This document shows positions 1,084 through 1,523 of a stretch of DNA of 3,806 bases, one piece after another (the stretch's first letter is position 1; each line of letters starts with the position of its first letter). Below the pieces are notes generated by a model, which saw nothing but the letters and a program-made list of their open reading frames with translations, had not been told where the DNA came from and did no database searches. Made by a program: the position numbers and the translations under genes. The stretch is from Escherichia coli (GTDB lineage Bacteria; Pseudomonadota; Gammaproteobacteria; Enterobacterales; Enterobacteriaceae): the NCBI RefSeq assembly GCF_003334255.1, contig NZ_QOWU01000114.1. One strand, 5' to 3'.

Positions 1084-1523
1084 ACTTTGCCCTCAGACTG
1101 GCGCGTGAGATGGGGAGACCCGACTGGCGCGCCATGCTTGCCGGGATGACATCCACCGAATATGCCGACTGGCACCGTTTTTACCGCACGCATTATTTTC
1201 AGGATACCCAGCTGGATATGCATTTTTCCGGGCTGACGTACGCTGTACTCAGCCTGTTTTTTTGCGATCCGGATATGCATCCCTCTGATTTCAGTCTGCT
1301 TGTCCCCCGGCATGAGGAAGAGCAGGTGGAGAGGCCGGATGAGGACAAAATGCTGATGCAGAAAGCGGCAGGACTTGCCGGAGGCGTCCGGTTCGGTGGG
1401 GACGGAGGGGGCGATATTTTATCGTCTGCGGATGTGGCGGATGTCATGGTGGATGATGCCGCATTAATGATGGCTTCAGCGGGGATTCCGGGAGGTGTGA
1501 GATATGTCCCAGCCGGTTGGTGA
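652..1523 (+). CDS. G-T: Tail assembly chaperone G-T fusion made by programmed -1 ribosomal frameshift; effectively join(652..1065,1065..1523)
   Basis: The -1 frame (ORF-track frame of 1110..1523) is closed by TGA at 1047-1049 and open from 1050 to TGA at 1521-1523. The G frame ends at 1083. The only X XXY YYZ heptamer in the 1050-1083 overlap is G GGA AAG at 1059-1065. The shifted reading gives ...SAGK-VFDGELNFALRLAREMGRPDWRAMLAGMTSTEYADWHRFYRTHYF..., which matches my recollection of the lambda G-T junction and T domain. Confidence 0.9.
1059..1065 (+). promoter_or_regulatory. -1 programmed ribosomal frameshift slippery heptamer G GGA AAG
   Basis: In the G frame, GGA is at 1060-1062 and AAG at 1063-1065, preceded by G at 1059. 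This is the same heptamer used for G-T frameshifting in phage lambda. It lies 16 nt upstream of the G stop codon. Confidence 0.9.
1491..1495 (+). promoter_or_regulatory. Shine-Dalgarno sequence (GGAGG) for the tape measure gene
   Basis: GGAGG at 1491-1495 is followed by an 8-nt spacer (tgtgagat) and the ATG at 1504. It lies inside the 3' end of the T reading frame. Confidence 0.65.

Follow-up and report, generated by a model that had tools for sequence, protein, structure and literature searches.

Results

A lambda-type tail module in an E. coli prophage

The DNA analysed here is a 3,806-nt stretch of an Escherichia coli genome (the window), which holds a lambda-family V/G/T/H tail module of an E. 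coli prophage (Table 1). First comes a major tail gene, of which the window contains the 3' part; the last segment of its product (approximately residues 120–205, ending ...AEITV) presumably resembles the Ig-like C-terminal domain of lambda gpV. The product of the following gene, G, matches the NCBIfam family TIGR01674 (phage_lambda_G) with 167 bits (cutoff 74), T matches TIGR01715 (phage_lam_T) with 212 bits over T residues 7–116, and H belongs to TIGR01541; all three families are recognised above their curated cutoffs. H also scores 1054 bits against the PHROG family phrog_24, and its residues 1–374 align to positions 1–380 of the 381 in phrog_4498. The NCBIfam and PHROG matches bear out the gene identities proposed in the initial annotation, which had read the locus as G, its frameshifted extension G-T, and H. 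The order is that of a lambda-type G / G-T / H module, with G directly upstream, T in the −1 frame and H directly downstream. The −1 frame runs without a stop from the slippery heptamer to 1523, and the heptamer, GGGAAAG, is the one listed for lambda G/GT (PMC3296357). An ORF on the minus strand (1444–1590, 48 aa) lies within two well-supported plus-strand genes and was taken as a chance ORF.

Table 1. Features of the window around the T/H junction (positions in the window)
Feature	Position	Strand	Remarks
Major tail gene, 3' part	7–633	+	Upstream of G
Gene G (tail assembly chaperone)	652–1083	+	143 aa, stop TGA 1081–1083; from the ORF list
Slippery heptamer G GGA AAG, −1 frameshift	1059–1065	+	X XXY YYZ register of the G frame
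T segment of G-T	1059–1523	+	−1 frame, 154 codons, then TGA
Shine-Dalgarno (SD) site of H, GGGAGGTG	1490–1497	+	GGAGG 1491–1495; 8-nt spacer to ATG
TGA in the H frame	1498–1500	+	Two codons 5' of ATG; upstream bound of the H frame
Gene H (tail tape measure protein)	1504–3806	+	Start ATG 1504–1506; first 767 codons; continues past the window end
T/H overlap, out of frame	1504–1523	+	20 nt shared
T-frame stop TGA	1521–1523	+	Last base of H Gly6 (GGT) and first two of Asp7 (GAT)

The element is a common one. Across positions 1000–1700 (701 bases queried), the window shows 100% identity with a prophage of E. coli G1/2 (NZ_CP060083) and 98% with Escherichia phage PhiR12_1 (PV340549), and 2364 of 5426 complete E. 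coli genomes carry DNA similar to this region. The G1/2 prophage and PhiR12_1 represent the same element as the window, with no relevant difference, and their annotations contain the same 20-nt overlap: in PhiR12_1, T occupies 1635–2024 and H starts at 2005 (coordinates of its locus), and in the RefSeq/PGAP annotation of G1/2, T occupies 3311–3724 and the tape measure gene starts at 3705 (locus coordinates). The latter CDS (3705–6266, 2562 nt including the stop) encodes 853 aa, a length equal to that of lambda H. Since the 20-nt overlap stands in both GenBank and RefSeq records, the feature is already annotated.

T ends within the first codons of H

Read from the sequence, the start of H, the stop of T and the 20 nt that they share lie exactly where the initial annotation had placed them. 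In the H frame the overlap comprises codons 1–7 (M S Q P V G D), the seventh being incomplete, and in the T frame, whose stop is offset by +2 from the H frame, it reads (Y) V P A G W stop. The GGAGG of H is embedded in the coding sequence of T, as had also been proposed: bases 1491–1496 double as the T codons GGA GGT, which specify the Gly-Gly of a conserved GGVRY motif.

The H ATG aligns with the lambda H start, the strongest SD of the region lies 8 nt 5' of it, and the in-frame TGA at 1498–1500 makes a start farther upstream impossible. A later start, such as ATG 1570 (Met23), which is in frame, would mean that 1504 has been mis-called and that the overlap is not real. We consider this extremely improbable: ATG 1570 was rejected on the conservation of H residues 1–22, which are conserved at the protein level in lambda, N15-type and other relatives while the DNA changes mostly at synonymous positions, and position 1 of the PHROG profile aligns to residue 1. 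Moreover, the N-termini of lambda gpH and gpH* were sequenced experimentally, according to the citation of Walker et al. 1982 in PMC12617516; the gpH sequence presumably corresponds to the annotated lambda ATG, since it was used to interpret the DNA sequence of lambda. The start of H is thus secure in this very common prophage family.

It is homology and conservation that establish the start site, and not the statistics of the overlap. The window contains a single GGAGG-N8-ATG where 0.17 are expected, and 31 of 200 shuffles contain at least one; GGAGG alone occurs 9 times against 9.5 expected, with no enrichment. When H is read in the T frame, 43 stops are found in 767 codons, and a ribosome entering this frame at random has a probability of 0.30 of running into a stop in the next 6 codons. 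With such a stop probability and unremarkable motif counts, the length of the overlap is unremarkable too.

The length of the overlap varies among related junctions

The initial annotation had suggested a comparison of the junction across lambdoid phages. A search with the T protein returned only copies that were 99–100% identical, and the diversity set was obtained by scanning IMG/VR with a degenerate DNA pattern, which gave 120 loci with 63 distinct 140-nt junctions (Table 2). The pattern required GGAGG..TATG..GGNGATCT, and the invariance of these three elements in the census is by construction. Census and annotated phage genomes together show that the length of the overlap is not conserved, with overlaps of 4–35 nt in some relatives and gaps of 12–289 nt in others. 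The 20-nt overlap is a known lambda-type junction, the commonest of several interchangeable forms. In HK97, the tape measure gene starts only after an insert that follows the frameshift product, which shows that the junction tolerates foreign DNA.

Table 2. Forms of the T/H junction in the pattern census and in annotated phages
Junction	Source	Loci	Distinct junctions	Remarks
Overlap, 8 nt	IMG/VR census	15/120	9/63	
Overlap, 20 nt	IMG/VR census	74/120	33/63	
Overlap, 23 nt	IMG/VR census	25/120	17/63	
Overlap, 32 nt	IMG/VR census	2/120	1/63	
Overlap, 35 nt	IMG/VR census	4/120	3/63	
Overlap, 8 nt	Lambda (J02459)			Annotated; T end 10549, H start 10542
Overlap, 23 nt	N15 and HK225			Annotated
Overlap, 4 nt	phiES15			Annotated
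Gap, +12 nt	Vibrio phage Pel			Annotated
Gap, +37 nt	CS01			Annotated
Gap, +38 nt	Shfl1			Annotated
Gap, +43 nt	Stx2_12E129_yecE			Annotated
Gap, 289 nt	HK97 (NC_002167 8146–8434)			Moron gene gp15, then putative terminator

Comparison with individual phages revealed how these lengths arise: (i) Lambda and the window have in common the gene order, the GGGAAAG heptamer, an AGGAGG-N8-ATG laid over the GGVRY codons of T, and the relative reading frames, but they differ in H codons 2–3 and in Gly6, H beginning with ATG GCT GAA CCG GTA GGC GAT in lambda and with ATG TCC CAG CCG GTT GGT GAT here. In lambda the T stop is the TGA of GCTGAA, which gives the 8-nt overlap ATGGCTGA; in the window T is four codons longer because this TGA has been lost and the next one lies in GGT GAT, which encodes the Gly-Asp of a conserved VGDLV motif of H. 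(ii) N15 (gene 15/gene 16) and HK225 resemble the window in that the T stop falls in the GGT GAT of VGDLV and the SD lies on the GGVRY codons, and differ from it in an extra codon in the H N-terminus, which gives the 23 nt, and in a T with a single copy of the LM..AG..GGVR[FY] segment. (iii) In relatives with GGC or GGG at the Gly6-equivalent codon, the T frame ends elsewhere. The T tails that follow GGVRY vary freely (G, VPAGW, VPASG, GPDGSR, GCTGRRSGR...), tracking the codons of H. Since the T stop is formed by the Gly-Asp codons of H, the length of the overlap follows from codon choice in H codons 1–7.

The aligned AGGAGG is kept in lambda, in HK225 and in a spacer of Stx2_12E129. In this last phage T stops earlier, after an earlier GGVRF, and the homologue of window positions 1464–1503 is a non-coding spacer with AGGAGG before the H ATG. 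The site is therefore kept for H and not for T, and T can do without its last residues.

An old internal duplication in the T tail

The C-terminal tail of T contains an old internal duplication, with copies at 1341–1394 (EDKMLMQKAAGLAGGVRF) and 1452–1505 (DDAALMMASAGIPGGVRY) on the plus strand in the T frame. At the protein level 9 of 18 residues are identical (E = 6e-6); a direct repeat search at the DNA level within T did not detect the duplication. Lambda has both copies and N15 and HK225 have one, and T of Stx2_12E129 ends after the first copy, the second being the non-coding spacer described above. The upstream copy has a GGAGG of its own (1380–1384) and looks like the fossil of a T-end/H-start junction; in the window, TCG stands 8 nt past this GGAGG and there is no start codon. 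In lambda, the upstream copy (locus 1419–1434; J02459 approximately 10418–10433) has GGAGG, an 8-nt spacer and TTG, which opens a 17-codon frame (LARTGMKLSPLPRMWRT). Lambda also has a second GGAGG-N8-ATG (locus 1487/1500), in the T frame itself (MLMTVSEGIAGGVRYG).

H has a strong and unstructured ribosome-binding site

The duplex between the SD region of H (22 nt 5' of the ATG) and the 3' end of 16S rRNA reaches −14.2 kcal/mol, which places it in the top 0.6% of 22-nt windows. This supports the proposal of the initial annotation that H initiation depends for the most part on the strong ribosome-binding site of H itself. The pairing predicted for G (window 630–654) is far weaker than that of H, at −5.0 kcal/mol, and that of lambda G is −7.6 kcal/mol. 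Yet in lambda many gpG copies per gpGT molecule bind gpH (PMC5009743), while a tail contains six gpH (PMC12617516). The ratio in which these genes are expressed is clearly not determined by site strength alone.

No RNA structure that would sequester the SD emerged from the junction. The predicted folds of 141-nt and 71-nt junction windows are no more stable than those of shuffles (z = +0.62 and −0.28, respectively), the unpaired probability from the SD to the AUG (0.34) compares with 0.38 ± 0.12 for shuffled flanks, and RNAalifold on the 63 distinct junctions gave approximately 0 kcal/mol, with no conserved structure and no supporting covariation. A structure that hides the SD was rejected accordingly, folds, consensus and accessibility all lying within background. 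Rfam produced only two sub-threshold chance matches at the junction or close to it, and nothing resembling a promoter or terminator was found between 600 and 1800. A strong, unstructured SD fits with independent initiation of H.

These results bear directly on one way in which T translation could act on H, in which the H site would be locked in a structure formed on the mostly ribosome-free T region and opened by the occasional frameshifted ribosome. The T region is seldom translated (PMC5009743), so that a structure could form there, and a small hairpin is indeed predicted between GGGA (in the SD) and UCCC (H codons 2–3), with −4.3 kcal/mol. This hairpin is weak, however, the folding energy and accessibility are those of shuffled controls, nothing is conserved or covaries in the 63 junction variants, and lambda lacks the UCCC partner, having GCUGAA in its place. 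Such an unfolding mechanism is, in our judgement, very unlikely.

Discussion

The genes that meet at this junction work in one assembly pathway, and the initial annotation had held that their tight arrangement suits translational coupling between chaperone and tape measure, in keeping with the known physical interaction of the two proteins. The second part of this statement holds for only one half of the chaperone: gpH is bound by the G part, and the partner of the T part is the tail tube protein gpV (PMC5009743). As for the first part, the junction does resemble the known coupled pairs (−4 ATGA, −1 TGATG, −8 NTGNNTGA) in that the genes are co-directional and serve one assembly pathway, the stop lies past the start, and the SD is inside the upstream gene. 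By termination-reinitiation, ribosomes stopping at 1523 would move back 17 nt, be captured by the SD and ATG, and restart on H. The output of H would then be linked to that of gpGT, and assembly of the chaperone with the tape measure during translation would be favoured. No more than approximately one ribosome footprint separates stop and start, with the SD there to capture a post-termination ribosome; in the pattern census every close relative has an overlap; the junction of lambda itself is the −8 motif, which is among the spacings enriched genome-wide (PMC12548453); and gpG and gpGT bind gpH (PMC5009743).

In spite of these similarities, we regard termination-reinitiation as unlikely here. 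Coupling is best when stop and start are spaced from −4 to +3, with a steeper loss as the overlap grows than as a gap grows (2025 review, PMC12548453), and in one systematic study it was absent at −25 (PMC12548453). The spacing here, −20, exceeds the efficient range, falls where coupling is strongly reduced, and is a poorer coupling geometry than the −8 of lambda. For termination-reinitiation, genes have to overlap or lie very close together (PMC10666635); elsewhere, coupling over long overlaps is known for the coat-lysis pairs of MS2 and fr, at −50 and −38 (PMC12548453). The coupled pairs differ from this junction in other ways as well. No more than a few percent of ribosomes would use the upstream frame here: gpG and gpGT of lambda are made at approximately 30:1, that is, some 3% of ribosomes reach the T stop (PMC5009743), and the identical heptamer suggests that the frameshift rate may be the same in this prophage. 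The published ratio agrees with the earlier view that only a frameshifted minority terminates at 1523, and it means that just one in about 30 of the ribosomes translating G arrives there. The downstream site, instead of being weak or sequestered, is independent, very strong and unstructured; the spacing varies among relatives, some of which have gaps of 12 to 289 nt; and the partner of the T domain is gpV and not gpH. The variable overlap, the poor spacing and the lack of a site-sequestering structure thus speak against an arrangement suited to coupling, and it is the small number of ribosomes arriving from upstream, the strong site of H itself, the non-conserved spacing and the −20 geometry, in combination, that make coupling unlikely.

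It is likewise highly improbable that a substantial part of H initiation comes from frameshifted ribosomes that end in the opening codons of H, so that gpH is partly locked to gpGT. If this were so, there would be a stoichiometric link between the rare form of the chaperone and the six-copy tape measure, and the overlaps of 8, 20 and 23 nt seen in relatives would set different coupling strengths. Coupling, if real, would constitute a simple dosage link between chaperone and tape measure, but the evidence points the opposite way.

In all probability, then, this is an ordinary T/H boundary, at which H initiates independently and the overlap is a passive by-product of gene packing. We infer that independent initiation is most likely what happens in vivo, with coupling at most a minor contributor. 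Ribosomes would bind de novo at the SD of H, with its 8-nt spacer, and translate H from the ATG at 1504; this SD would be superimposed on the Gly-Gly codons of the conserved GGVR[YF] motif near the T C-terminus. The few ribosomes that have slipped into the −1 frame (approximately 1 in 30 in lambda) would read across the SD and four to five codons into H, and end at the next TGA that they meet in frame, apparently a chance product of the GGT GAT that encodes the conserved Gly-Asp of H. The short T tail past GGVRY (VPAGW here) would accordingly represent overprinted filler, and the overlap would not be a tuned coupling device. Besides the long-overlap coupling of MS2 and fr, two observations have to be set against this reading. 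Every close relative caught by the pattern overlaps, which fits with some benefit of overlapping, with gene packing or with ascertainment by the pattern. In addition, the six gpH per tail (PMC12617516) and the low gpGT flux are of similar order, and a stoichiometric link is therefore not numerically absurd.

The position of the T stop is not to be read as functionally tuned, and annotators should expect variable-length T tails that mirror the first codons of H. Junctions of this kind belong to the textbook picture of lambda-family tail operons, and the presence of one in this prophage matters little.
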